Origin: Octopus vulgaris
Lineage: Eukaryota
Direction of reading: 5' to 3'
Assembly (NCBI GenBank): GCA_951406725.2
Contig: OX597814.1
Coordinates: 145,452,001 to 145,516,000, forward strand
DNA: 64,000 nucleotides
Part shown: in pieces, positions 999 through 61,234 of the stretch
How the letters are laid out: each line of letters opens with the position of its first letter
Position numbering within the stretch: the stretch's first letter is position 1
Program-made: the position numbers and the translations under genes
Notes under the pieces: generated by a model
Databases searched by the model: none
Seen by the model: only the letters and a program-made list of their open reading frames with translations
What the model was told of the DNA's origin: nothing

Positions 999-3374
999 AC
1001 ATTTACGCACACATATAAAAACTCTTACACACGCACATATATATGTATAGGTATTTATAAATAGATAAATAGATACTGAGATAGCGTGACAGCAGAAGAG
1101 AGCTAACACATATTTTATAAAATATCATAGATGTGAAGACCCTTAATTGAGGGAGCAGCTGAGGAAGTCCAAGAAACACCCACAAAGTTGACGAGAGACA
1201 AACAGAACTCATAAATGTGAAGTTTTCATAGTTGTCTTATGTGTCAGATTTTATGATCTTGTAGACAATGGTTAGAGCTCAGAAATTCATGACACATGAC
1301 TTAAGAAGTCTTCAATTCGAAAACATGGCAACTACTACTCTTTATTGTATTGATAAGTTAAGCAGATAACAGCCTTAATTGTATCGCAGGCTTAATTGTT
1401 GTTTTTTACAAAATCTCTGTGAAATATACAAAAAATAAATATTATTGCCAGATAAATTATAATAGTATATGCACAAAATCATTATTTGGTGTGAAGGTTG
1501 GATATACTACTGTAAGATAGTATAACGTATTTGCTTCAGTGCAGTATGTTTTCTTGTGGAACCTATTCTCATTTCGCTAGCTGAAATTATTGACAATGAA
1601 ATAGCCTTCTTATCGGCAAAAAGTAGCCACGGTCCAATCACTGGACACACTCCTACCGAGTTATTCAACTATGAAATATAGTGCAAGTAAACAGTGGATC
1701 TCAAATTAGAAAGTTGATGAAATATTGCCATATTTTATGAAATATTCCTATAATTCATTTTCTCTAAAAGTCAAACATTATGTTTCTACAAATACCTTTT
1801 ACATTTTGAAATGTTACTTAGAAATAAAATATAGTTTAGTTTTAGTGCACTGGCGCTGAGAGCCGAAAGAACAGGAGTTCAAACATCGCAGAAAATACAT
1901 CGTTTAATATAAAATGGATATAAATAATGTCAAATGTTTTTAGATATTACCTCCTTGCAAAATGTAATTCACGGAATTCCCATCAGTTCGGAGTAGTGTT
2001 TGTCAGCTGTACTTGTAATTTCAACGAAGGGACAACATGGATTGCATTATCAAACCTTTTAAAACCGTATCGAACATTCATCATTTGAAAGGTAATAGTT
2101 TGTCATAGTTTAAGTCACTATAGGATATACGTAAACACTTATAACATTATTGTTAATGCATTTCTTGCGTTTTTCAGCTAATCATAGCCTTCACTCTTTC
2201 GCCTTTTATCCAGCCATCAATCTGCCAAATTTAATAAGTTGATCTCGATTCAAACAGAGTATTGGGAAGACTGATCATGTCACTTTTGATTAAATAGACA
2301 TCCATGTAGTTTAAGCAGTTGCGTGTGTGCATCAACAGAATAACTAAATGCATCCAGCAACATACTCGCTTCGCTATAGTTTCATTGCAAGAAGGTATTG
2401 GCAAATGTCCATTTTCACGAATCAGCGCATGCATGTCTTTTATTCACAAATAAATATTCGACAGTAGTGAATTCTCTCTCTACTTAGATAAATTTACACT
2501 CACACAAACACAGACATACATACTGACATATATATATATGTATAGGTGTGTATATATGCATGTATATCATTATCTATAATTATGTACGTATGCATTACCT
2601 ACGCTGATACACGCCCAAATGTACGTGTATTTCATACATACACACTCGTCAACATATATATTGTGGGGAAGTGAAAGGGTGTTTCAACCGAAACAAAAAG
2701 AAAACAACAACAAAAAGCAAAAAGAACATACGTCTAGTTGTTTTTTATTGTGAATTAATTCATTAATTATGATTTGTACTTACAAATACGTACTTACAAT
2801 ACGTACTTACAACTGGTTTTCTTAGTTTACGGTGATATACTAGTGGCCAGTGTCTTCTTGGAGTTAATGATAGGGATGCCTACGTTACTAAAGGGATCAT
2901 ATGCCATATTAAAACCCAGAGCTTTTAGGCTTTTAGGAGCAGAGGTTTTGTTATCAACGAATAAAAGTCTACAACATCAAAGTGAGTAAATTGATAGTAT
3001 TGGTTATCGCTTATATTCTTAAACCACTTTATCACAGCCATGCTATTGTCCTATAGGGAGTTCTATAATATTTCCACACCCAATTAAGAAGAAATCTAAT
3101 TTTAAAAATTAAATTTACCTATTTCGGTTTTAATTGAGTTTATATGCTTATACTTGGGGCGATTCCTAAAGTTAATTTTCTTGGTTTTTATGTGTAATTA
3201 AAGTTTTGAACAAGGGAAAGTAATCTACTCTATCACTAACATTTAGGTTGGTTGCAATACATTTGGCTGCTAGTTTCTCCTGGTTGTATAACAGTTGGTT
3301 TATCTTACACATATTAGTAACAATGTTAGAATGGATCCTGTTATAACTATTTTCTCCTGTCAACAGATGAATAT

Positions 3375-3483
3375 ATATCACGTTGAAAGCACAGGTTCTC
3401 GTTCCATCACCGAGGTTATGCAACGTCGAGCCTAGTGGGTACTTAGATAGGTGATCGCTTGGGAAACCTAGGTGGTGTAAGCG
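3375..3483 (+). pseudogene. 5S rRNA pseudogene lacking about the first 10 nt
   Basis: ATATCACGTTGAAAGCACAGGTTCTCGTTCCATCACCGAGGTTATGCAACGTCGAGCCTAGTGGGTACTTAGATAGGTGATCGCTTGGGAAACCTAGGTGGTGTAAGC is colinear with invertebrate 5S rRNA (ACGTTGAAAGCACCGGTTCTCGTCCGATCACCGAAGTTAAGCAACGTCG...GTACTTGGATGGGTGACCGCCTGGGAA). Box A and box C carry substitutions; no oligo-T terminator follows. Confidence 0.85.
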
Positions 3484-3495
3484 TCTCACACTTTA

Positions 3496-3657
3496 GGCGC
3501 AGGAGTGGGGCTGTGTGGTAGTTAGCTTGTTTACCAGCCTCATGGTTTCGGGTTCAGTCGCACTGCGTGGCAACTTGGGCAATTGTATTCTACTATAACT
3601 TCGGGCCGATCGAAGCGTTGTGAGCGGATTTCGTGGACGAAAATTGAAAGAGCCCGT

Positions 3658-7640: not shown

Positions 7641-9310
7641 CACTATTCTATTCTATAGAACTACCGAAACAGTAGTTTTTCTACACAAAATACACAATAT
7701 ATACCCTAGATTACTCGATGAAATGACATCACGCACATTACATACTCGGCACATATTTCACTTAATACGACAAGCATTTTCTAAACGACCTTAACATAAA
7801 ATCCTTAATTCATCTAAGGATATGGTCAGGTCCATTACGCCCTCCATACAGTTCAGGTTTGCAATACATAAATACAATGAAACATAGTTTCATTTCTTCA
7901 ACGATTCCGATACCTCCAAACGATATCTGAACATGTTTCTTCAAAGGTTACTAGATAAGTCATCTATACGTGGATACATCTTAATCAACAACAACTTCCT
8001 ACGAGAGAGGGCCATGATTCTACAAAACTTGACCTAAAAATGACATAACAAATTCTATCAGGGAGAGCTATTTACACTTTGCCGGGACCATTTTCTGACC
8101 GAAATTTATCTATGTTTATGTAAGTTTAATACAAATCCCAGTGTACAGAGTCTCCACCCAATAAAATACTACAACCCCAGAATATATAATTTTCTCGATC
8201 ATCATCCAAATTGCAAAATATATATATATCGGATACTCAACTCTCTCCAGCAGTAGAAAAACAAAATCTACAGAGCACATCACCTCCATAACCCACATTA
8301 AAAAAATTGCCATATCATGCAACTCGCACAGAAAACTTCGTAGCCTCAGTTACTACACAACACTATATAGCACAAACCAAAAAATAGCAGTCATTTTTCC
8401 TCTAAGGATTTCTATCGTTTAAAGAGGAACGACATATTGTATAATCCTAAGTATGCCAAAGGACATAGCGAATACTCAACGATACAAATAGGCGAAAGTC
8501 TAAAGTAACTCGAGAAGACGGAAAACAAAGCGAGAAAAGTGCAAAATGTGCACGCACCAATACATACACACAAACGCGCGCGCATTCTTCAGTTTCACAA
8601 GAAAATGCCGCATTCACCTCATGGACATGAAAGATAATCTGGTGGTGTAGTAGAAAGTTGCAAGAAACTGGAGAAAAGACGATGATAATGACGATGCCTC
8701 TAAACAAATACAAAAGATAATAATGTTATTAGAGGAGAAGAAAAAGAAGAAAAAGTAGAACAAGAACAACAGTAACAGTAGCAACAACGTTGAATATGAT
8801 GAAAATAGAAGAGAAAGAAATAGAAAAGGATGAAAGAGAAGATGATGAAGAAGACGCAGGAGGAGGAGAAGGAGATGAGGAGGAGGAAGAGGAAAAGAAA
8901 AAGCGAAAGGAGAAGAACGCTTCTTTTTTTAATTTATTTGCTACAAGTCCAAGTTAAAACAAATATACATAGAGAAAATGTCGCAATACACGAAAGACAT
9001 TTAACAGAAATTAATGAAATATAAAATGTAAAATATTCTACGATATTATACAAGTATTTTATACATAGTTTCGAGCTGAATAATTAACAAACTCTCATTC
9101 GTATTGTTGATTTTTATATATTTTGCTACACGTATTTCTTACAGACGCTTCACGTATGTAACATCGATGATGTAGACAAAATAATAGCAATTTGTTTTGT
9201 CAAGATTACAAGCACACATGATAATAAATCTTCTATGGACAGCAACTTAAAGAGAACAGTTACAAAAAATATACGCTTGAAGTTTGTTCGATGTTTACCG
9301 ATAGCAATTG

Positions 9311-9455
9311 CTTGACAACCGATGCTGGTGTGCTTATGTCCCCGTTACTTGGCGGTTCGGCAAAAGAGACCGATAGAATAAGTACTAAAGGCGGTGCCCC
9401 AGCATGGCCGCAGTCAAATGACTGAAACAAGTAAAAGAGTAAAGAGTAAAAGAGT
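9311..9455 (+). mobile_element. SINE family A 3' portion flanked by a perfect 122-bp direct duplication (9189-9310 = 9456-9577)
   Basis: CTTGACAACCGATGCTGGTGTG...CAGCATGGCCGCAGTCAAATGACTGAAACAAGTAAAAGAGTAAAGAGT. Flanks compared base by base and identical. Confidence 0.92.
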
Positions 9456-11324
9456 AATTTGTTTTGTCAAGATTACAAGCACACATGATAATAAATCTTC
9501 TATGGACAGCAACTTAAAGAGAACAGTTACAAAAAATATACGCTTGAAGTTTGTTCGATGTTTACCGATAGCAATTGGAGATTTTTAATCTCATAATTTT
9601 ACGAAGTAATCGTTAGAAAAGACAGTAGAGTGTTACTTAGAGCAACGTTGTGCATACATATTTACAGTTAAGTAGATACAGACAGTAAGAATAAATGTTT
9701 ATCGAAAAGATCACTGTCAAAATGTATAGACAGAAAAAGGAAAAAAGGATGTTGGACAATTACAGCGCCAAGACAGCTTCATATAGATTTTGGCAGTATA
9801 TGTGTTGTCAATATGATAAAAGATATAGCTAGGTCAGAGAATAGAAGTAAAGCAATATGGAATTCTGGAGTCCTTAAAATAAATAATGGCCCTCTTATAA
9901 AGAAGACTGGTTCATTTAACAGAACTGTCGATACATATTTTCGCTGATTGATACATTGATAAATTACTAGAGTTCCTTTATTCATCCTCAGAGAATTGAA
10001 AATCAAAATCAATGTCAGTGAAATTTGAACTCATTTCTGAGGGAATTGCGAATTTGAATACCTTAGATTTCGCCTACAAATAGCACGTTTACCGAAATAA
10101 AACGTTAAATACAAGAAAAAAATGTAATATCTGGAAGTCATCTGTATTATTCCGCTAGGAAATTATGAACAAGATACACAATTACAATATAATAATGTAA
10201 AGAGTGTTACGAAGCAATTTGGGGAACTTGAGCATTTTAAAGAAAGTTAGTGAAGCACTCACAAAAGCTACATTACAAGAATGAAATACATATTAACAAA
10301 AGGCTACTCCTCATATGATATAACTCGATAAATACGCTTTGAACAGTTTTTCGAGAAATTATTACAATGGCTGACAACCGAGGTGTATATGATTCTCTTC
10401 TCACCGGATGCGCATGCACGCGTTTCGACCTTTTTTTCTCTCTACTCTAGCGATACGTTAAGCTGAGATGTGTTATATTTAATGCATATGACAATCTCAC
10501 TATATTCAACATGTGAGAAAGTGAGGATAGAGTGGGAGTGTGTTTACGTTTGTATTCAAAAGAGATGTGCACTTACCCTGACCTCATCAAATCATTACCC
10601 ATAACACGTAAATGGAATGTGAGTTACAACCTACCTACTTCGTTCGCGCTAACTGCAATTTCTCTTCCGTTCACGAAAGAACCACATAGCGGCAGGAAAA
10701 GAAAAAGTAAATATCTCCGCCTACTTACTAATGTAGAACAACGACCAAATTGTTCAATCTCCCTCCTGCCATTATTCATTGCTCTTTGATTTCAGCAACA
10801 AGTATGTGACTTACAGTTGCGTTTCTATTATATGACATATACAGCCATATATTCATTTCTTCATTGATGAACACATGCAAGCACATAGATAAATCTACAC
10901 ACACACGAGCGCATACATGCACACACATTCACACACTCACAAACATACGCACGCACACGTGAACACGCGAAGATATACTACAACGCCCATGTTTCACCAC
11001 GATATATTCACAGGTATACGTGCAAGACTCACGTGTGTTGAAAAGTATGTAATAAAGTAATATTGTGATTTATTTCTTCTAAAACACATGCGATAATGCA
11101 TGCACGCGCGAAAACTCATACACACAAAATCTCTCTCTCACACACACACAAACACATGTAACTTTTATATCTTTCTATCTGTTACTCACCTCGTCTCTCC
11201 CTCTCTATTTCTCTCTCTCTCTCTATTACGCAGCCTTGAGTATACGTATGTATGTATGGGTTTGTGTGTTTGCGAGCATATGCACATTCGTGTATAAATA
11301 TCTTAAATATTAATACATCTATAA

Positions 11325-12736: not shown

Positions 12737-13320
12737 TCTTTTCTACTCTAGGCACAATGCCTGAAATTTTTGGGGAGGGGGACAGTCGATTAGATCAACC
12801 CCAGTACGCAACTGGTACTTAATTTATTGCCCCCGAAAGGATGATAGGCAACGTTCGCCTCGACCGAATTTGAACTCGGAACGTAAAGACAGACGAAATA
12901 CCTATTTCGTTACTACCCACAAGGGGCTAAACACAGAGGAGACGAACAATGACAGACACACGGATGAAGTCGATTATATCAACCCCAGTGCGTTACTATT
13001 ACTTATTTAATCGACTCCGAAAGGATGAAAGGCAAAGTCAACCTCAGTGGATTTTGAACTCAGAACGTAGAGGCAGACGAAATACCTGTTTTTTTACTAC
13101 CCAGAAGGGGCTAAACACATAGAGGACAAACAAGGACAGACAAACGGATTAAGTCGATTATATCGACCCCAGTGCGTAACTGGTGCTTATTTAATAAATC
13201 CCGAAAGGATGTTAGGCAACGCTGACCTCGGCGGAATTTGAACTCGGAACGTAAAAACAGACGAATTACCACTAATCATTTCGCCTAGCGTGCTAATGTT
13301 TATGCCAGCTCGCTGCCTTT
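12737..13320 (-). mobile_element. tRNA-derived SINE, family B: one head plus three tandem ~180-bp body units
   Basis: Reverse complement of GGCGGCGAGCTGGCAGAAACGTTAGCACGCC head, B box GAGTTCAAATTC and conserved core GGTCGACTTTGCCTTTCATCCTTTCGGGGTCGAT..AAGTACCAG, repeated three times. Confidence 0.88.
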
Positions 13321-13334
13321 CTTCACAATATATT

Positions 13335-13494
13335 AGATCGATCCCAGTGCGCAACTGGTACTTAATTTATCAACCCTGAAAGGATGAAAGGCAAAGTCGA
13401 CCTCGGCGGAATTTGAACTCGGAACGTAAAGACAGACGAAATATCGCTAAGTATTTCGCCTGGCGTGCTAACGTCTCTGTCAGCTCGCAGCCTT
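13335..13494 (-). mobile_element. SINE family B, 5' part
   Basis: Same head and core; shares the flank TTCTTCACAATATATT with the preceding copy. Confidence 0.85.
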
Positions 13495-13518
13495 TCTTCA
13501 CAATATATTTACACACAA

Positions 13519-18125: not shown

Positions 18126-19575
18126 ATATATGTATGAGAGAAAGATAGAGTAAGAGAAAAAGAGAGACAAGGAGTCCTGATAGCCTGTACAATATATATA
18201 TATATATATTTATATACGCGAGCACGTCTGTGTTCATGGATATGTATATATATTTTTTATTTAAAATTTGACGTACAGAATATAGAAATACAATATATCA
18301 ATATAATATAATCTGTGTTGCGAAGATTGAGGATGCTTGAAGGAGAACTTATTAAAGATGCGATGGGACCGATTGTAATATGATTCCCATTATGTACTGT
18401 AGACACACTCTATCAGGGGAATTTTTAGCCTCTAGAAGATAGACATTACGCCATTAAGTTTGTTTATATGTTAAATGTTAAATCTGAGCGAATTACCTAA
18501 CATTATGATTTTATTTTTTTATGTAGATTCTACTCGTCTTCATTGTTTCTTTTCCTCTGTCGCTCAGATACAGATATTTACGTACACTAACATATGTGTG
18601 CCTCTATATGTGACGTTGACAAGCAAGCTGTATTTAAAACATGTCTCTAAATAAATACATACGCACAAAAAATCACACAGACTTATGTATGTGTCTGTCT
18701 AACAGGTATGTACTTATTCGTACATACATAGCGTGACATTATATCCAATCTCATTTTTTAATGAAGATGCTATTAGTATAATATAATATTAAAAATGTGA
18801 ATAGATAAAAAAAAAATCAATAAGAAACTTTTGTATCGAATCTACTCCGTCTAAGCAAAGACAATAGTTTCCAAATCACTCGAGAACCTTTTCAGAATGT
18901 CGCATTTCACCAGATCTAAAGGGAATATTTTTTTTCATTTTTCACTTTTATAACAAATAGTCATTCATATTGGAGTATATTTGCTGAAAGTTAACTGGTA
19001 CTTGATTTGAGCGACCGCGATGGGATGGAAAGTAGTTTGGGTATGATTTCTTTAACGTCAAAATCGTGTCCCTTCTATTTAGTACAATGCATGAAACTAT
19101 CCGCGAGATGTTTAATCTTGTGGGTAGTACATATCCAAAATTAACCACGTTCAACGCACAAAGGCCCATATATGTAAGAAAGAATACAAATTTCTCTCTT
19201 ATGCGTGGAACAGTACAAGGCCTCTGTTCATGAGCTTCTTAGAAATATCTTATTTCCACAGACACATATTGTCTAATTCGAATGACGAAATTGATATCAC
19301 TCTATATCCTACTATAGTACCTGTCTACTATCTACCTGTACGTGTATATCTCTGTTCGGCATTTTGTAACGTAATCTAACAATAGGTCACACCTCTGCTA
19401 GTGATTTTCTCCAGGAACTCTGAGAGTATTGCCAATGTGGCTTTCTATCACCTTTTCAGATAATACTTCGGGAATTTCTCAATACTCTTTCAGAGACAGT
19501 TGTTCAATTATTTTTACAACCCTCGCAAGGGGACCGGATTTTGCAAAATATTTTGCTATAACCGCTACCTATACT

Positions 19576-19991
19576 TATTTCTTTACTACCCACAAGAGGC
19601 TAAACTCAGAGAGGACAAACAAGGACAGACAAACGGATTAAGTCGATTGTATCGACGCCAGTGCGTAACTGGTACTTATTTAATCGACCCCGAAAGGATG
19701 AAAGGCAAAGTCGACCTCGGCGGAATTTGAACCCAGAACGTGACGGCAGACGAAATACCTATTTCTTTACAACCCACAAGGGGCTAAACACACAGGAGAC
19801 AAACAAGGACAGACACACGGATTAAGTCGATTATACTGACCCCGGTGCGTAACTGGTAATTAATTTATCGACCCCAAAAGGATGAAAGGCAAAGTCGACC
19901 TCGGCGGAATTTTAACTCAGAACGTAACGGAAGACGAAATACCACTAAAGATTTCGCCCGGCGTGCTAACGATTCTGCCAGTTCGCCGCCT
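19576..19991 (-). mobile_element. SINE family B dimer with 19-bp TSD
   Basis: TSD TATAACCGCTACCTATACT at 19557-19575 and 19992-20010 encloses one head and two body units. Confidence 0.93.
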
Positions 19992-24544: not shown

Positions 24545-25824
24545 ATGTAAGTGAAAATCTCAGAGTTTTATGGGTTCGCTATCACTTGCGCCCAATGCAC
24601 CCAAATTTCCCCATAGGTCACCAAATAAGATATTAATTAGGCTAGGTGCTAAATTTCGGTGATCGAATGTGAACCAGTGTTTTCGATGAGACATGGCCAT
24701 AAAATTAAAACAATAACAATATATACACAGTATTGCATTGACTCTCTTTAATGTTTTACGCAAACTTTCAACGCAAAGCCTAGGTAGGATTGCACTCCTT
24801 CGAAAATACACTATACATAACATATTAAATGAATAATTAATCGACGCTAATATGAAATATACAACACGTACATTCTATTAATTTATGAAGAAAAATAGGG
24901 ACTATAGCCAGCTTCTATGAAAAAACACTTCGTACGAAAAACACTTCGAAAAACCACTTCAGCTCTTAATATTCCTTAAAGATGGAATATCAATAAGACA
25001 TTTTGCCTAGAAAGTACGTTTCGCAATTATCTGGTTTCAGTTTAAGCCGCACAGCGTTCAACCATGGGCTAGTATATTCTACTATAGCTCCAGAGCAACA
25101 AATGTCTTGCGAGTGAATATGGGAGACGGTAACTTTGTAGCAGCTTGTCGTGTATACATACATACATACATACACACATACATGCATACACACACACATA
25201 CACATACACACATATATGTATGCATTATGTATGTATGTATGTATGTATGTATGTATGTATGTATGTATGTATCTTTGTGCTTGTGTTTGTTAACACCCCC
25301 ACCATCGCCTGACAAGCGGCGTTGATTTGTTTACCTAGTGGTTTGGCAAATGGGGAGACGGCTCGAATAAGTACCAAACAGGTGCTGGAGTCGATTGTTC
25401 AATTGAACCATTCAAAGTAGAGCCCAGTGTGGCCGCACCCAATCTTCCCCGAATCCTTTTCTTTATTCTTATTCTTTTCAGCTCTAGACATTTGCCCACT
25501 CCCATATCTTATTGCTTCATACATATGTTTTTTTCTGTTTTTTGTTCTCTCAGTACTTTCCACTTATTTTTGACCAAATATCTTGCTAGTTAACTTGGTA
25601 TCACTTAACGACGTTATAACCATTACATAATTAAGGTATATCCGGTTTGATGAGTAGATAGTGGAACAAACCTACCCTAGCTACTCATCAAGTGGTTATG
25701 GTAGCTAGGAAACATGTAGCCTGGATTTCACCTGGCCCTCTATCCTCAATTTGGATTCTTATCGCATACATAGCAAACCTAGCTGTTACCTTCGATATGG
25801 GAAATACATACATACATACATACA

Positions 25825-27702: not shown

Positions 27703-27746
<44 letters not shown>

Positions 27747-27750
<4 letters not shown>

Positions 27751-28607
27751 GCAATAAAAATGGTAAATAATTTTTCTGTGGTTTTTCATGTAACCAACAA
27801 TTATTTACCGGTAATTTTCGGTATGTAAATACGACAAATTTATCTTCAGGAACTTTGTAAGGTTCAGTATATAGTAAAGTAAATAAGAGGGCTAGCAGCA
27901 GGCTGTTTCGCCTCATACCGAAGGAATTAGAAATGGCAGTCAAAGACTGTTTTTTCCATTTCCTGTAAGTGGAGATTCCAAAAACGAAGGTCCGTGCGGC
28001 TCACATACACAAAACCGGAGTAGCAAATAGACGCAAACAGTCACTTACCGTTAATAACGAACACGTGTTTCTGGATCACAAATATAGAAAAGTAGTTTGA
28101 TTTCCGTCATCGGCGCTATATTCGATAGCTTTACCAATGCCACCGGCCCCCACTTCTGACCCAGCGACATCAGATAGTGGGGGGAAGTGCGCAGATGTTA
28201 AAACTAAGTAACGACTGGGAACGTAAATTTTCCCTCCAAAATTCTGCCATGCGCGCCTTCTGGGTAATCGTAATGGAATGAGGAATCCACATGGTAATGC
28301 AATAAAAATGGTAAATAATTTTTCTGTGGTTTTTCATGTAACCAACAATTATTTACCGGTAAATTTCGGTATGTAAATACGACAAATTTATCGTCAGGAA
28401 CTTTGTAAGGTTCAGTATATAGTAAAGTAAATAAGAGGGCTAGCAGCAGGCTGTTTCGCCTCATACCGAAGGAATAAGAAATGGCAGTCAAAGACTGTTT
28501 TTTCCATTTTCTGTAAGTGGAGATTCCAAAAACGAAGGTCCGTGCGGCTCACATACACAAAACCGGAGTAGCACATAGACGCAAACTGTCACTTACCGTT
28601 AATAACG
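27747..28607 (-). mobile_element. Retrozyme-like element 1: 313-bp direct repeats (27747-28059, 28295-28607), 548-nt period
   Basis: The repeats differ at about 6 positions and have no credible ORF. A hammerhead-like motif lies on the minus strand. Homologous blocks are shared with 34187-35099, and the 3' end runs into (TA)n. Confidence 0.8.
28054..28119 (-). ncRNA. Type I hammerhead ribozyme, core variant (U4C, 10.1-11.1 mismatch)
   Basis: Minus strand: AUAGCG [CCGAUGA] C GGAAAUCA...UGAUCC A [GAAA] CACGUG UU^ CGUUAU. Stem I is AUAGCG/CGUUAU, stem III is the palindrome ACACGUGU, the triplet is GUU. Confidence 0.7.
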
Positions 28608-28811
28608 TTAACACGCCGGGCGAAATGCGTTGCCGTATTTCGTCTGCCGTTACGTTCCGAGTTCAAATTCCGCCGAGGTCGACTTTGCCTTTCATCCTTC
28701 CGGGGTCGATAAATTAAGTACCAGTTACGCACTGGGGTCGATGTAATCGACTTAATCCGTTTGTCTGTCCTTGTTTGTCTCCTCAGTGTTTAGCCCCTGT
28801 GGATAGTAAAG

Positions 28812-28814
<3 letters not shown>
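28604..28814 (+). mobile_element. SINE family B lacking its first ~20 nt
   Basis: AACGTTAACACGCCGGGCGAAATGCG...core...GTAAAGAAAT; shares AACG microhomology with the end of the retrozyme-like repeat. Confidence 0.88.
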
Positions 28815-28859
<45 letters not shown>

Positions 28860-29569
28860 CTGCATATATATTATATATATGAATATACATACATATATAT
28901 ATACATACATACATATATATATATATATAATATCAAGCACTAGCTAGTTTATTTAATTTGATTAACCGCATAAATGCCTCTCTCTATATATCTTATGTAT
29001 ACACACACACGCATATATATATATATTATATGCACGTGTATATAAGTATATTCGTGTGTGCGTGTATATATGCATGAATGTATGTATGTATGTATGTATG
29101 TATGTATGTACATATGGGTGCGCTTGTTCTTTAAATGTGTATGACTTTTGAAATTTCATCGCATTTATTAATAACAAATATTATTATAATTACGAAAAAA
29201 TAATTTAAGGCGTATACATTTCACTAAAACAAATAACGATACTTCACTCTACTGTAGTTCGAAAGCCCGACCCTCTAATTACCATATCCGTTTACCATTT
29301 CTCACTAAAAATACGAACAGATAAACTGCTGAGAGCAGCAGAAATTTTGCGTCACAAAATATTGAAATAAATAATAATAATAACAACATTTTGTAAGCTA
29401 CCAAACAATAGAGTAAAATATATAGAATAATCATCACCACCAACACTATCGTCGCCACTACCATCACCACCACCGCCACCACCATCATTATCATCATCAT
29501 TAACATCGTGGTCATCGTAGTCGTTATCGTCTTCATCATATTCCTCCTCCTCCTCTTCATCATCATATA

Positions 29570-31582: not shown

Positions 31583-31990
31583 AATTCTTTATTGCCCACA
31601 AGGGGCTAAACATAGAGGTGACAAACAAGGAGAGACAAACGGATTAAGTCGTTTACATCGACCCCAATGCGTAACTAGTACTTAATTCATCGACCCCGAA
31701 AGGATGAAAGGCAAAGTCGACCTCTGCGGAATTTGAACTCAGAACGTAACGGCAGACGAAATACATATTTCTTTACTACGCACAAGGGGCTAAACACAGA
31801 AAAGACAAACAAGGACAGACAGACGGATTAAGTCGATTATATCGACCCCAGTGCGTAACTGGTACTTATTTAATCGACCCCGAAAGGATGAAAGGCAAAG
31901 TCGACTTCGGCGGAATTTGAACACAGAACGTAACGACAGACGAGATGCCGCTAAGTATTTCGCCCGGTGTTCTAACGATTCTGCCAGATC
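31583..31990 (-). mobile_element. SINE family B dimer (preceded by a family A tail at ~31265-31458 and a decayed B piece at ~31480-31580)
   Basis: Two tandem cores and one head. Confidence 0.87.
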
Positions 31991-34136: not shown

Positions 34137-34191
<55 letters not shown>

Positions 34192-34217
34192 TGAGACGCA
34201 TTTATTTATAATTGAAG

Positions 34218-34316
34218 AGTCCTACGCTGAAGAGGAAAATAGTTGGGTAAGACATAATTATTTAATTGTTATGCTTTCCTATGACTTAATTCCGAAACGT
34301 ACGTCCGTAAGTGACT
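34218..34316 (+). ncRNA. Type I hammerhead ribozyme, copy 1; predicted cleavage after C34305
   Basis: CCUACG [CUGAAGA 34227-34233] GGAA...long hairpin...UUCC [GAAA 34294-34297] CGUACG UC^ CGUAAG. Complete core, G10.1-C11.1 pair, palindromic stem III, GUC triplet, one mismatch in stem I. Confidence 0.85.
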
Positions 34317-34819
34317 TAATGTAGAATGATTATCGTCATTTCTTTCTCTTTTGCCTGCGTTGTTTGCCTTTTAAGTGCTGTGGTTTTACTGGGATCTCCC
34401 TTTTAAGTAGAAAGAATAGCCAAAACTCTTTGACTGCTATTTCTAAATTCGGTGTATGGTGAGGCAAATCGTTGCTAAACCCTTAATTACTTAGTATTAC
34501 TTAAACCTTCCTTGAATGGGTCTTTTACATGCCGAAATCTACTTGGTGAAATTAATGATTATTCCTAATTAATTTAATTTCACCCTATATTATTATTGAT
34601 AATTATATTTCATCCAAGTAAAAAAACTGTAGCATCTTATTTTGGCAGCACGCTGACGGAAGGGGGATGGTGACATACTTTCATTCACCCTTTGAATTTG
34701 GTGGTACTGGTAATGGCTTACGCTCGCTCTGATACCATGAGTTGAGGTGATGTCTTCTAGTGCCTTCAAATTTAATACACAGTTATTAATGATTGAGACG
34801 CAATTATTTATAATTGAAG

Positions 34820-34918
34820 AGTCCTACGCTGAAGAGGAAAATAGTTGGGTAAGACATAATTATTTAATCTTTATGCTTTCCTATGACTTAATTCCGAAAC
34901 GTACGTCCGTAGGTGACT
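34820..34918 (+). ncRNA. Type I hammerhead ribozyme, copy 2; predicted cleavage after C34907
   Basis: Same core (CUGAAGA 34829-34835, GAAA 34896-34899). Stem I is perfect (CCUACG/CGUAGG) and can extend through AGUC/GACU across a bulge. Confidence 0.9.
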
Positions 34919-35094
34919 TAATGTAGAATGATTATCGTCATTTCTTTCTCTTTTGCCTGCGTTGTTTGCCTTTTAAGTGCTGTGGTTTTACTGGGATCCC
35001 CCTTTTAAGTAGAAAGAATAGCCAAAACTCTTTGACTGCTATTTCTAAATTCGGTGTGTGGTGAGGCAAATCGTTGCTAAACCCTTAATTACTT

Positions 35095-35148
<54 letters not shown>

Positions 35149-37196: not shown

Positions 37197-38990
37197 TATT
37201 CCTTTCTAACACGGTGTAGGTAAAATGCACCGGAGTCTTTCGTCATTTGTCAAGTCAGAACAAGGACCTTAGACAGGTAATACTTTCCTTAAGATGCACG
37301 TTGTACCCAATAAGGCTGCTTGTTGCGGGACATCAATCTTGCATGGGATTTCCAGTAGCCTTAAGAAGTTTTGAAGTTTCCATGGGATTGAGCTCAACGT
37401 TCCGCTCCTCACTTTCACTCCTTATAGAATAGTCTATATTAATTAGTCCACTGCCACCATTATTTCTGTTCATATACAGTCTGTTTACGTTTGCTTTAGG
37501 GTGTAGCACCCCATGCAGCGTCATCAACTTCCTCGTCCTTCTATCCAGTAATGATATTTCTTCCTTAGTCCATTTGAGGATGGTCGCAATATATCTGACA
37601 ATAGAAACTGCCAAGATATTCATTGCGGTAGTCATATTTTTGGAATTCAGGTTGAATTTCAACACCATCTTCACCCTGACCTTGACTTTCATTTCTCTGT
37701 GCAGAATGTCATCGAGCTCCAAAATCCCTAAATAACTATATCCAGTACCGTCGGATTCACCCATGGTCTCTCCTGATGATAACTGCCATCCTCTGCAGGT
37801 TGCTTCCTTCCCTATTTTAATATTAAACACTGAGCATTTGGTAATCCAACATTCCATACCGATGTTCCTACCACACCTCTGGACTGTTTTGATTAAAGTG
37901 AAGATTGTCCAATGATTGGCCTATCTTCCCACATCGGTAACCCATCTTAACTTTCCTAAGTGTCATTGTTATGGGTATTAATGCAATTACCAAAATTGAC
38001 GGAGAAAACGAGTCACCTCGGAAGATTCCCATTTTAATATTAAATTCTCCAATGAATACGTTACTTGAGTACAATTTGGTTTTCCACTCTTTCATGCTAT
38101 GCATCAGCAAATTTGTGATGTTGTAAGCAACACCAAGCATCTGCAGGCATTCAACTATCCAAAAATGCGGCATCATATCATATGCTTTCTTAAAGTCAAT
38201 CCAAACCATAGACATGTTTGTATGATGTTTTTTACAATGCCTCAAAACTGTTTAATTGATGACCTGGTGATTTTTGATACCCTGAGAATTCTTACTACAT
38301 CCTTTTTGTTATCTTGGTAGTATTTCTTCATGTGCCAGGAAGACATATGTATTTGCCGCGGATATTCCAGTGAGTATCTTCCAGATTATGTTTAGGCATG
38401 CTATGGGACGGTAGTTTCCCATAATATTCCCCTTTCTTCTATCTTTCATTACAGATGTTGTCCTCTCAGTCACCTTTCACGCGGGAACTGTACCTTTCTA
38501 GGCACACTCATTTAATTGGGCTGCTAGTCTTTCATGCACCGCGTGGCATCTCTTCAGCCAGAAGCCATTAATCCCATCTGGTGTGTGTGTGTGTGTGTGG
38601 GGGGGTTCCCGTTAGGAACTTTACCCGCTTGTTCTTTCACATCACTCATGCTTATGACAATATTCCTTTATTTCTTTCCTTCTTGTAATTCTGTCATGAT
38701 AGTTTCTATCCACATTGCATCCTTTTTATGCACCACATTGTTTCCCTATGATCCGCTCCAGAACTCCTTGGCTTTATTTGCATCAGGATCAATATTTTCC
38801 CCATTGCCCCCTACTAGCGCCCGGAAGAATTGCTTCGGGTTAATTTTAAACAATCTATTCTCGAACTGCTTCTTTCTATACACAAATCTTCTGATCTTCT
38901 GTTTCTTTTGCCATGATCGTCTGTTTTAACTACTCTGTTACTGCATCAAACCCGTTCTTCCATATTTAATATGTCTTCTTTATTTTTTCC
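37197..38990 (-). mobile_element. R4/Dong-like non-LTR retrotransposon: decayed reverse transcriptase, internally deleted, with 3' end
   Basis: ORFs 37868..38245 (WIDFKKAYDMMPH, GIFRGDSFSP) and 37333..37857 (YSYLGILE, LDRRTRKLMTLHGVLHPKANVNRLYM..GGSGL). NYRPIAC-type motif near 38400-38415. The terminal QQAALLGTTCILRKVL lies near 37280-37330. Multiple stops and frameshifts. Confidence 0.88.
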
Positions 38991-53194: not shown

Positions 53195-53764
53195 TTGGGT
53201 TGTCAGGAAAGTTCGTGCCGATTTATAGTAGCTTACCTTTCAACTTATTTTAGAATGTGGGTGAGCCACTAAAATAGGATTTGACTACACCTCTATTTAG
53301 AGCACAATTTAAGCTATCTTTTCGTAGAAGATGGTTTATGTTTCTATAACCTGTAATAATTCTGTAACCCTTTAAAATAGAAGATAAGTTCATTTTCGAC
53401 ACTTGATGCTTTTCTTTTTCCGTAAAGGGGAAAATGCCTCACAAGCAACCAAAGAAATATGCGCAGTTTACAGTGATGTTTCTTTATCCGAAAGAACTGT
53501 ACGGAAGTGGTTTGCAAGGTTCCGAGCTGGAGATTGTAGCCTTATTGATAAAGAGCGATCAGGCAGACCATTCACTACAGATGATGACGAAATCAAGTCA
53601 TTAATTGATAATAACTCACATTGCACAACTCGGGAATTGGCAGAAAGCCTCAACCTATCAAAATCCGTCGTTCATGAGCACCTGGTAAAGCTTGGGTAAT
53701 GGCAAGTATTTATTGACCTTTTTCTTTCCTTTAAAAATCGGCACGGACTTTCCGGACAACCCAA
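53195..53764 (+). mobile_element. Internally deleted mariner element with 30-bp TIRs and TA TSD, retaining the HTH DNA-binding region
   Basis: TIRs at 53195-53224 and 53735-53764 (2 mismatches), TA on both sides. ORF 53403..53699 reads FRKGENASQATKEICAVY...SERTVRKWFARFRAGD.SL.DKERSGRP...TTRELAESLNLSKSVVHEHLVKLG*. Confidence 0.93.
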
Positions 53765-60130: not shown

Positions 60131-60644
60131 ATATATATATATAAAACTGTAGTTGTGTGAGTGTCTGTCTCCTACGATTTAGATTCCTAACTCCTCCCAC
60201 ATTTTGCGGTGCAGTTTAACCAAATTCGGGTATCTTATAGTCGTGATTCATATCGAGCCCGCCTGGCTATTAGCGCGCGTCTACGATGAGTCTACGATTT
60301 TAAAAATAATTTAACATCGTTTTTTATTCTATTTTAATGCATAATTTTTCGTGTGTCGACGGCAGCGGAGTTGGCGTCCACGCTCAAACACCTGCACCTG
60401 TGTTTGCTTCTCCCCATTCTTCCCTCCCTCGTGAAGCTGTGGGGAAGGGAGTTTAAGGAAATCAACGTCGTAATCCGTTGTCAAGGAGACCAGCGTTCTT
60501 TTAGAACAACGACTTCATGGCTTGAAGACACCAAAACAGAAATGGCTAAGAAAGCCCGAATTGGCATCTATAGAGGAAGTAACTCTCTAAAAATGCTTTA
60601 GTTATTTCTCTTACAAACCCGAGCAACGCCGGGCGATACTGCTA

Positions 60645-60645
<1 letters not shown>
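60131..60645 (+). mobile_element. Non-autonomous Helitron, copy 1
   Basis: 3' hairpin CCCGAGCAACGCCGGG (60618-60633), then CTAG|T at 60642-60646. The 5' end merges with (TA)n. No TSD. Confidence 0.8.
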
Positions 60646-60700
<55 letters not shown>

Positions 60701-60728
60701 TATATATATATAATATATATATATATAA

Positions 60729-61234
60729 TCTATATATATAAAACTCTAGTTGTGTGAGTGTCTGTCCCCTTCGATTTAGATTCCTAACTCCTCCCACATT
60801 TTGCGGTGCAGTTTAACCAAATTCGGGTATCTTATAGTCGTGATTCATATCGAGCCCGTCTGACTATTAGCGCGCGTCAACGATGAGTCTACGATTTTAA
60901 AAATAATTTAACATCATTTTTTATTCCATTTTAATGCATAAAATGCATCGTATGTCGATGGCGGCGGAGTTGGCGTCCACGCTCACAGCTGCACCTGTTT
61001 GCTTCTCCCCCTTCCCTCCCTCGTGAAGCTGTGGGGAAGGGAGTGTAAAGAAATCAACGTCGTAATGCGTTGTGAAGGAAACCAGCGTTCTTTTAGAACA
61101 ACGACTTCATGGCTTGAAGACACCAAAATAAAAATGGCTAAGAAAGCCCGAATTTATAAGGGAAGTAACTCTCTAAAAATGCTTATATAGTTATTTCCCT
61201 TACAAACCCGAGCAACGCCGGGCGATACTGCTAG
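60729..61234 (+). mobile_element. Non-autonomous Helitron, copy 2
   Basis: A|TC start at 60729, same 3' hairpin, CTAG|T at 61231-61235; homologous to copy 1 over its full length. Confidence 0.85.

Follow-up and report, generated by a model that had tools for sequence, protein, structure and literature searches.

A 1.57-unit hammerhead repeat in Octopus vulgaris, very probably a non-LTR retrozyme, with a 5′ end coinciding with its predicted self-cleavage site

A hammerhead repeat inserted at a (TA)n tract

The window, a stretch of 64,000 nucleotides from Octopus vulgaris (contig OX597814.1, positions 145,452,001 to 145,516,000), is microsatellite- and SINE-rich animal DNA, and carries on its minus strand an 861-nt element formed by 1.57 units of a 548-nt repeat (Table 1). 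The element contains a type I hammerhead motif, has a (TA)n microsatellite at its 3′ flank and is joined head to head with a SINE at its 5′ end, which coincides with the predicted self-cleavage site. It is very probably a hammerhead retroelement (non-LTR retrozyme), and is likely best read as one whose hammerhead resembles those found in Hydra-clade Penelope-like elements. Chances are about equal that its 5′ end was or was not set by ribozyme cleavage of an RNA; given a retrozyme, a ribozyme-made end is slightly favoured. The complete reading, a non-autonomous non-LTR retrozyme copied into (TA)n by a Penelope-like enzyme with a 5′ end probably set by the ribozyme, is given an even chance. Taken alone, the locus represents an ordinary insertion, and the element is of a kind already known.

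Table 1. Coordinates of the element and associated features in the window.
Feature	Positions	Strand	Basis
Whole element, 1.57 × 548-nt unit	27747–28607	−	self-alignment
Complete monomer, unit positions 1 (cut-site equivalent) to 548 (U17)	28060–28607	−	fold z −3.05
Partial second copy, unit positions 1–313	27747–28059	−	self-alignment
(TA)n microsatellite at the 3′ end of the element	27706–27748		microsatellite and junction
Intron-like piece GTAAGT...CTTACAG, beginning 12 nt inside the unit, with AAAATGG after it	28511–28596; second copy 28048–27963	−	sequence only
Type I hammerhead: core CCGAUGA, C/A under stem II, palindromic stem III, GUU triplet	28054–28119	−	motif scan
Predicted self-cleavage bond U17/C1.1	28059–28060	−	inferred from hammerhead numbering
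SINE lacking about 17 nt of its head, placed head to head with the element	28604–28814	+	window copies
AACG microhomology, element 5′ end and SINE head	28604–28607		sequence comparison
(TA)n-rich microsatellite directly after the SINE tail	28814–28933		microsatellite
Sister element, 602-nt period, two canonical hammerheads (34221–34311, 34823–34913), (TA)n on both sides	34189–35099	+	motif scan

Organization of the repeat

The minus-strand segment 28607–28295 aligns to 28059–27747 without gaps over 313 nt, with 6 differences (1.9%) and an offset of 548, which confirms the period and the number of units given by the initial annotation. The ungapped match of the outer copy stops exactly at 28607, that is, at 28059 + 548, the equivalent of C1.1, again as annotated. 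The outer 5′ end therefore carries the 3′ half-site of the hammerhead, and the locus holds a single complete motif. The two halves of the element are identical at 12 of 14 checked sites where the aligned contigs described below mostly differ. This agreement, together with the low divergence between the halves, fits either repeated copying of a single template variant or a homogeneous subfamily array. The (TA)n tract at the 3′ end is the likely priming target of the element.

The intron-like piece is followed by a conserved context, as variant contigs retain AG-AAAATGGA and differ in the upstream sequence. Judged by its letters, the piece resembles the intron in the 5′ UTR of Penelope pLTRs (PMC8557442, PMC4209133). 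The longest open frame of the unit (114 aa) had no relatives in protein searches, a kind of blank that is weak evidence, and no ORF with reverse transcriptase and GIY-YIG was found in the unit or the adjoining DNA. Just upstream of the hammerhead is a strong hairpin (28130–28200, minus strand; z −3.86); stem base 28150 differs in most aligned contigs of three runs, so that the strength of the hairpin may be specific to this copy.

The hammerhead motif

Stem I of the hammerhead is formed by AUAGCG and CGUUAU and comprises 6 bp, one of them G-U. The core has C at position 4 (28112; U4C), and all other elements of a type I hammerhead are present, including the GAAA box. The base of stem II has an unpaired C (28106) and A (28072). 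U17 of the GUU triplet is at 28060 and C1.1 at 28059, and stem III is covered by a 10-nt palindrome with a self-dimer energy of −12.1 kcal/mol. The motif stands as it was placed by the initial annotation, and the cleavage site follows from hammerhead numbering.

A motif scan of the whole window yielded three hammerhead candidates, namely this one and the two of the sister element. When run against 5000 dinucleotide shuffles, a relaxed descriptor that includes U4C had no match at three stringencies and matched 5 shuffles at the fourth, the loosest. Rfam did not call the motif at E values up to 10, and the monomeric hammerhead fold differs from the minimum-energy fold. A second hammerhead proposed by eye at 28470–28450 was rejected, as its core is mismatched and it is absent from the motif scan. 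Overall, the hammerhead is real at the level of the family.

The core had been described at first as either dead or a natural variant, and the evidence leans towards the latter. Most Hydra-clade hammerheads leave an N/N unpaired under stem II and carry U or A at H17 (Craig et al. 2021, PMC8557442 File S2). Cleavage also occurs in an axolotl retrozyme whose helix II has a U-U mismatch at its base (PMC7229834). In the element, therefore, the mismatch below stem II does not indicate decay; this mismatch and the GUU triplet are traits of a Hydra-type hammerhead. The exact C/A pair under stem II is found in PLE-X1_cBra, which is not a Hydra element (PMC8557442 File S2). The U4C change considerably lowers activity in vitro, yet permits viroid infectivity (PMC3088659).

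A multi-copy repeat family

Parts of the 548-nt unit are present in 20 of 24 public runs. Contigs of four runs (505, 384, 215 and 24 aligned contigs, with three organism labels) were aligned to a permuted monomer in which the cut site is internal, an arrangement where depth gives no copy number. All 29 bins of the unit are covered in all four runs, and at most 7 per 100 contigs run into unlike sequence. The unit belongs to a dispersed, multi-copy repeat family with many variants. No aligned contig covers the entire monomer. A joint 548 nt back in the contig mapping was rejected as proof of tandem copies elsewhere, being continuity across the permuted reference, and a dip of contig depth over the hammerhead was rejected as not interpretable.

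Among the 40 of 70 variants listed, none falls at 28112 (U4C), 28072 or 28060, and neighbouring sites do vary; C4, the extra A and GUU are thus probably subfamily traits. A 100-nt contig that runs across the hammerhead differs from it by one letter; the difference was placed at 28083, since the two contigs covering that site share the change. Among the aligned contigs, C4 is apparently the majority state, and U4C looks subfamily-wide.

A diverged variant, obtained from contig loose ends of one run, has the core CUGACGA and a stem I of AUGGUG/CACCAU. With respect to the element, two pairs are changed on both sides and one pair on one side, the two halves of the stem being taken from separate contigs of that run. 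On these sequences, stem I covaries among relatives. Another run has the same stem I 5′ strand with the core UUGACGA. In loop 3, many contigs have a 1-nt insertion or a 2-nt deletion, and the insertion gives acac-c-gtgt.

Metagenome pattern scans for an autonomous partner or relatives returned 0 loci, and the protein searches did not find such a partner either. The literature searched, mostly outside subscription journals, contains no description of this family or of retrozyme 5′ ends at hammerhead cut sites. The family is real, of a known kind and apparently undescribed.

The sister element

The sister element begins 116 nt before its cut site and has both hammerheads intact. These have a G-C pair under the core, a GUC triplet and a long stem II, and Rfam calls them weakly (E 0.0026 and 0.012, below gathering). 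The body of the 548-nt unit is homologous to that of the sister element at unit positions ~75–260, with a score of 51 versus a shuffle maximum of 34 (0 of 500). In both elements, GTAAGT lies just past the cut site, and positions 97–102 hold a pyrimidine-rich AG. Because the bodies are homologous and the sister hammerhead is canonical, the ribozyme type differs between relatives.

The junction with the SINE

The join between the element's 5′ end and the truncated SINE through AACG, reported by the initial annotation, was recovered by comparison with the other window copies. The repeat is presumably a SINE with a tRNA-type head; it was not found in the MetaSINE supplement, of which all but one file was searched. 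It differs at 12 of 203 positions (5.9%) from the majority of the 11 other window copies. The SINE looks older than the element, since this value exceeds the 1.9% between the element halves, and this favours the element as the second to arrive. The expected (TA)n is missing from the right flank of the element and the SINE head is clipped, so that DNA was lost at or after insertion.

Since the 4-nt microhomology blurs the junction, five placements are possible, only one of which is the cut site. The unit and an intact SINE copy have 4-mers in common at 350 of 548 unit positions, and a microhomology join is therefore possible almost anywhere. The local similarity of the cut-site region to the SINE is ordinary, with at least 119 of 548 windows scoring equally in every comparison, so that homology to the SINE does not favour this spot. 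A gapped similarity that extends 8 nt past the cut site was rejected as the cause of the junction, because many positions score equally.

Partial tandems of the SINE with a 175–184-nt period are frequent in the window (12784–13509, 19571–19943, 31585–31943). Matches to 5S rRNA are found at 3369–3483 (plus strand, 52.4 bits) and 24590–24704 (minus strand, 36 bits); the former is followed directly by a dispersed repeat (3494–3657) with five other window copies, and 3369–3657 is possibly a 5S-headed SINE. A tandem duplication of ~597 nt at 60144–61234 has (TA)n between and after its copies, which each end in a small hairpin and CTAG, as is usual for Helitron-like ends. A 128-nt direct duplication (98%) surrounds a short repeat insertion at 9183–9577. 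A decayed reverse transcriptase-like fragment (37333–38251, minus strand; 52% and 62% to two proteins) is presumably RTE-like, and the translation of 53388–53699 (plus strand) is assumed to be a fragment of a mariner-like transposase.

Origin of the 5′ end

The initial annotation proposed that the cDNA was copied from an RNA with a ribozyme-made 5′ end. This reading is reasonable and holds about half of the probability: the end fits C1.1, and against it stand the five placements, the missing (TA)n flank and the end of the sister element, which lies elsewhere. The same annotation held that the internal hammerhead was uncleaved or religated, a choice that misses a third route, namely an end-to-end template jump between cut monomers.

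In the proposed mechanism, transcription of a tandem locus would yield an RNA in which the hammerhead, weak and predicted to require dimerization via the palindromic stem III, cuts some sites only, giving RNAs with a cut 5′ end. A (TA)n-targeting Penelope-like reverse transcriptase/endonuclease would then nick the tract and prime inside the RNA at unit position 313. Copying would proceed back through one intact unit junction, which was left uncut, was religated or was bridged by a jump from one cut monomer to another, until the enzyme runs off at the cut RNA end. The cDNA end, ...AACG, would finally anneal to the head of an older SINE nearby, with loss of the intervening DNA.

Alternatively, the end may lie at the cut site by chance, a possibility to which we give well under half, yet a substantial part, of the probability. 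The copy would have been longer, or a circular or uncut template would have given it a random end; a microhomology-mediated deletion, occurring later or during insertion of the SINE into the right (TA)n flank, would have fused it to the SINE. The loss of that flank, the clipped SINE head and the abundance of shared 4-mers agree with such a deletion, as does the 5′ end of the sister element, unrelated to its own cut site. Uncut RNA is the main template in one biochemical study (PMC11167929), and coincidences of 1% get picked out when many windows are scanned. Against a chance end, the coincidence required is 5/548 = 0.9% per end, or 1.4% over the two 5′ ends of the window, at a spot unfavoured by homology to the SINE. 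If f is the fraction of insertions that end at the cut site, the posterior for a ribozyme-made end is f/(f + 0.009), that is, ~0.5 at f = 1% and 0.85 at 5%. None of 24 of the 95 contig loose ends has a 5′ end at 28059, and contigs cannot display ends. A single blurred junction cannot show ribozyme cutting.

An improbable reading has both strands of one (TA)n tract primed as targets, one with the retrozyme RNA and the other with SINE RNA, and the cDNA ends meeting at AACG; the SINE would here take the place of the inverted 5′-truncated copy typical of Penelope-like insertions (PMC8557442). Both 3′ ends face outwards into (TA)n with the 5′ ends head to head, and both cleavage and extension of the two strands by a Penelope-like protein have been seen in vitro (PMC11167929). 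This co-insertion stays open at low odds because the SINE tail is the only one of 12 in the window that runs into (TA)n. It is a single case, however, and the ...AAATA that closes SINE tails could seed (TA)n; moreover, the SINE is as distant from the majority as other old copies (3.9–10.8%) and looks older than the element. The stricter form, where a ribozyme-cut retrozyme RNA was copied to its end on one strand and fused with the SINE copy of the other, is a shade less probable still. If true, the fusion would document in the genome that a hammerhead with a U4C core cleaved in the germline and that two-template priming took up an unrelated RNA.

It is as unlikely as the co-insertion that the 1.57 units arose at the DNA level, by local tandem duplication or conversion of a monomer or by assembly error, or that the unit is only the terminal repeat of an autonomous Penelope-like element that lost its ORF at this locus. 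The splice-like sites and the conserved ATG context do recall a pLTR 5′ UTR, and the monomer is spanned in its entirety by no contig. However, the sister element has the same more-than-unit layout, the contigs cover every bin and seldom enter unlike sequence, and protein relatives were not found; an assembly duplication would not yield halves that differ at 6 sites.

For hammerheads in Penelope-like elements and retrozymes, the function has been called unclear (PMC8557442), and in one study cleavage was dispensable in vitro (PMC11167929). The many-copy family makes this role testable through the positions of 5′ ends. An accumulation of such ends at the cut site would mean that cut linear RNA is also a germline template, besides circles or uncut RNA, and that the U4C core works in vivo.

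Comparison with known systems

Metazoan non-LTR retrozymes (PMC7229834; Li et al. 2026, bioRxiv 10.64898/2026.07.22.740005) are like the element in their head-to-tail units and type I hammerhead, as well as in low GC, the lack of a recognisable protein and a palindromic stem III; the 548-nt unit is inside the reported 51–972 bp consensus range. The element differs from them in its U4C core and in the intron-like piece behind the cut site. Retrozyme RNAs comprise monomers, multimers and circles, with partly cut multimers documented (PMC7229834), and of 9 Xenopus retrozyme dimers, 8 failed to cleave (Li et al. 2026). The locus falls outside the "active" definition of Li et al. 2026 (two complete motifs) because it has one complete hammerhead, the sister element having two; this concerns the activity of the copy, not its family membership. 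Li et al. 2026 argue that retrozymes derive from Penelope-like terminal repeats.

With Hydra-clade elements, the element shares the N/N under stem II, U at H17, the (TA)n flank and, for some Hydra families, an acac-n-gtgt stem III. Nearly all Hydra-clade families insert at (TA)n (PMC8557442), and two Hydra hammerheads have a stem III of acac-a-gtgt (PMC8557442 File S2). Unlike those elements, the 548-nt unit has no ORF for reverse transcriptase or GIY-YIG, and has a longer loop 2 and U4C. File S2 of PMC8557442 includes Hydra-1_Obim of Octopus bimaculoides; in the text portion compared by eye, its ends have no visible resemblance to the body of the unit, and a 9-mer body motif had only 2 unrelated-looking matches in the PMC8557442 supplement.

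The more-than-unit layout and the hammerhead beside an intron or intron-like piece and ATG are as in Penelope/Poseidon pLTRs (PMC4209133, PMC11167929), as is priming at AT-rich DNA from an internal site downstream of the hammerhead. In Anolis Poseidon, cleavage is unneeded in vitro, uncut RNA is the main template, and no RNA reads begin or end at the site (PMC11167929). Unlike Poseidon_Ac, in which the cut site is no marker of RNA ends and is dispensable in vitro, the element described here has an end that coincides with the cut site.

A parallel for the 5′ end proposed here is the HDV-like ribozyme of R2, where self-cleavage gives the template its 5′ end and accompanies junctions at chance microhomologies that prime the second strand (PMC3774820). 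R2 differs from the element in its ribozyme class, is autonomous and rDNA-specific, and its 5′-end cleavage was shown over many junctions and in vitro.
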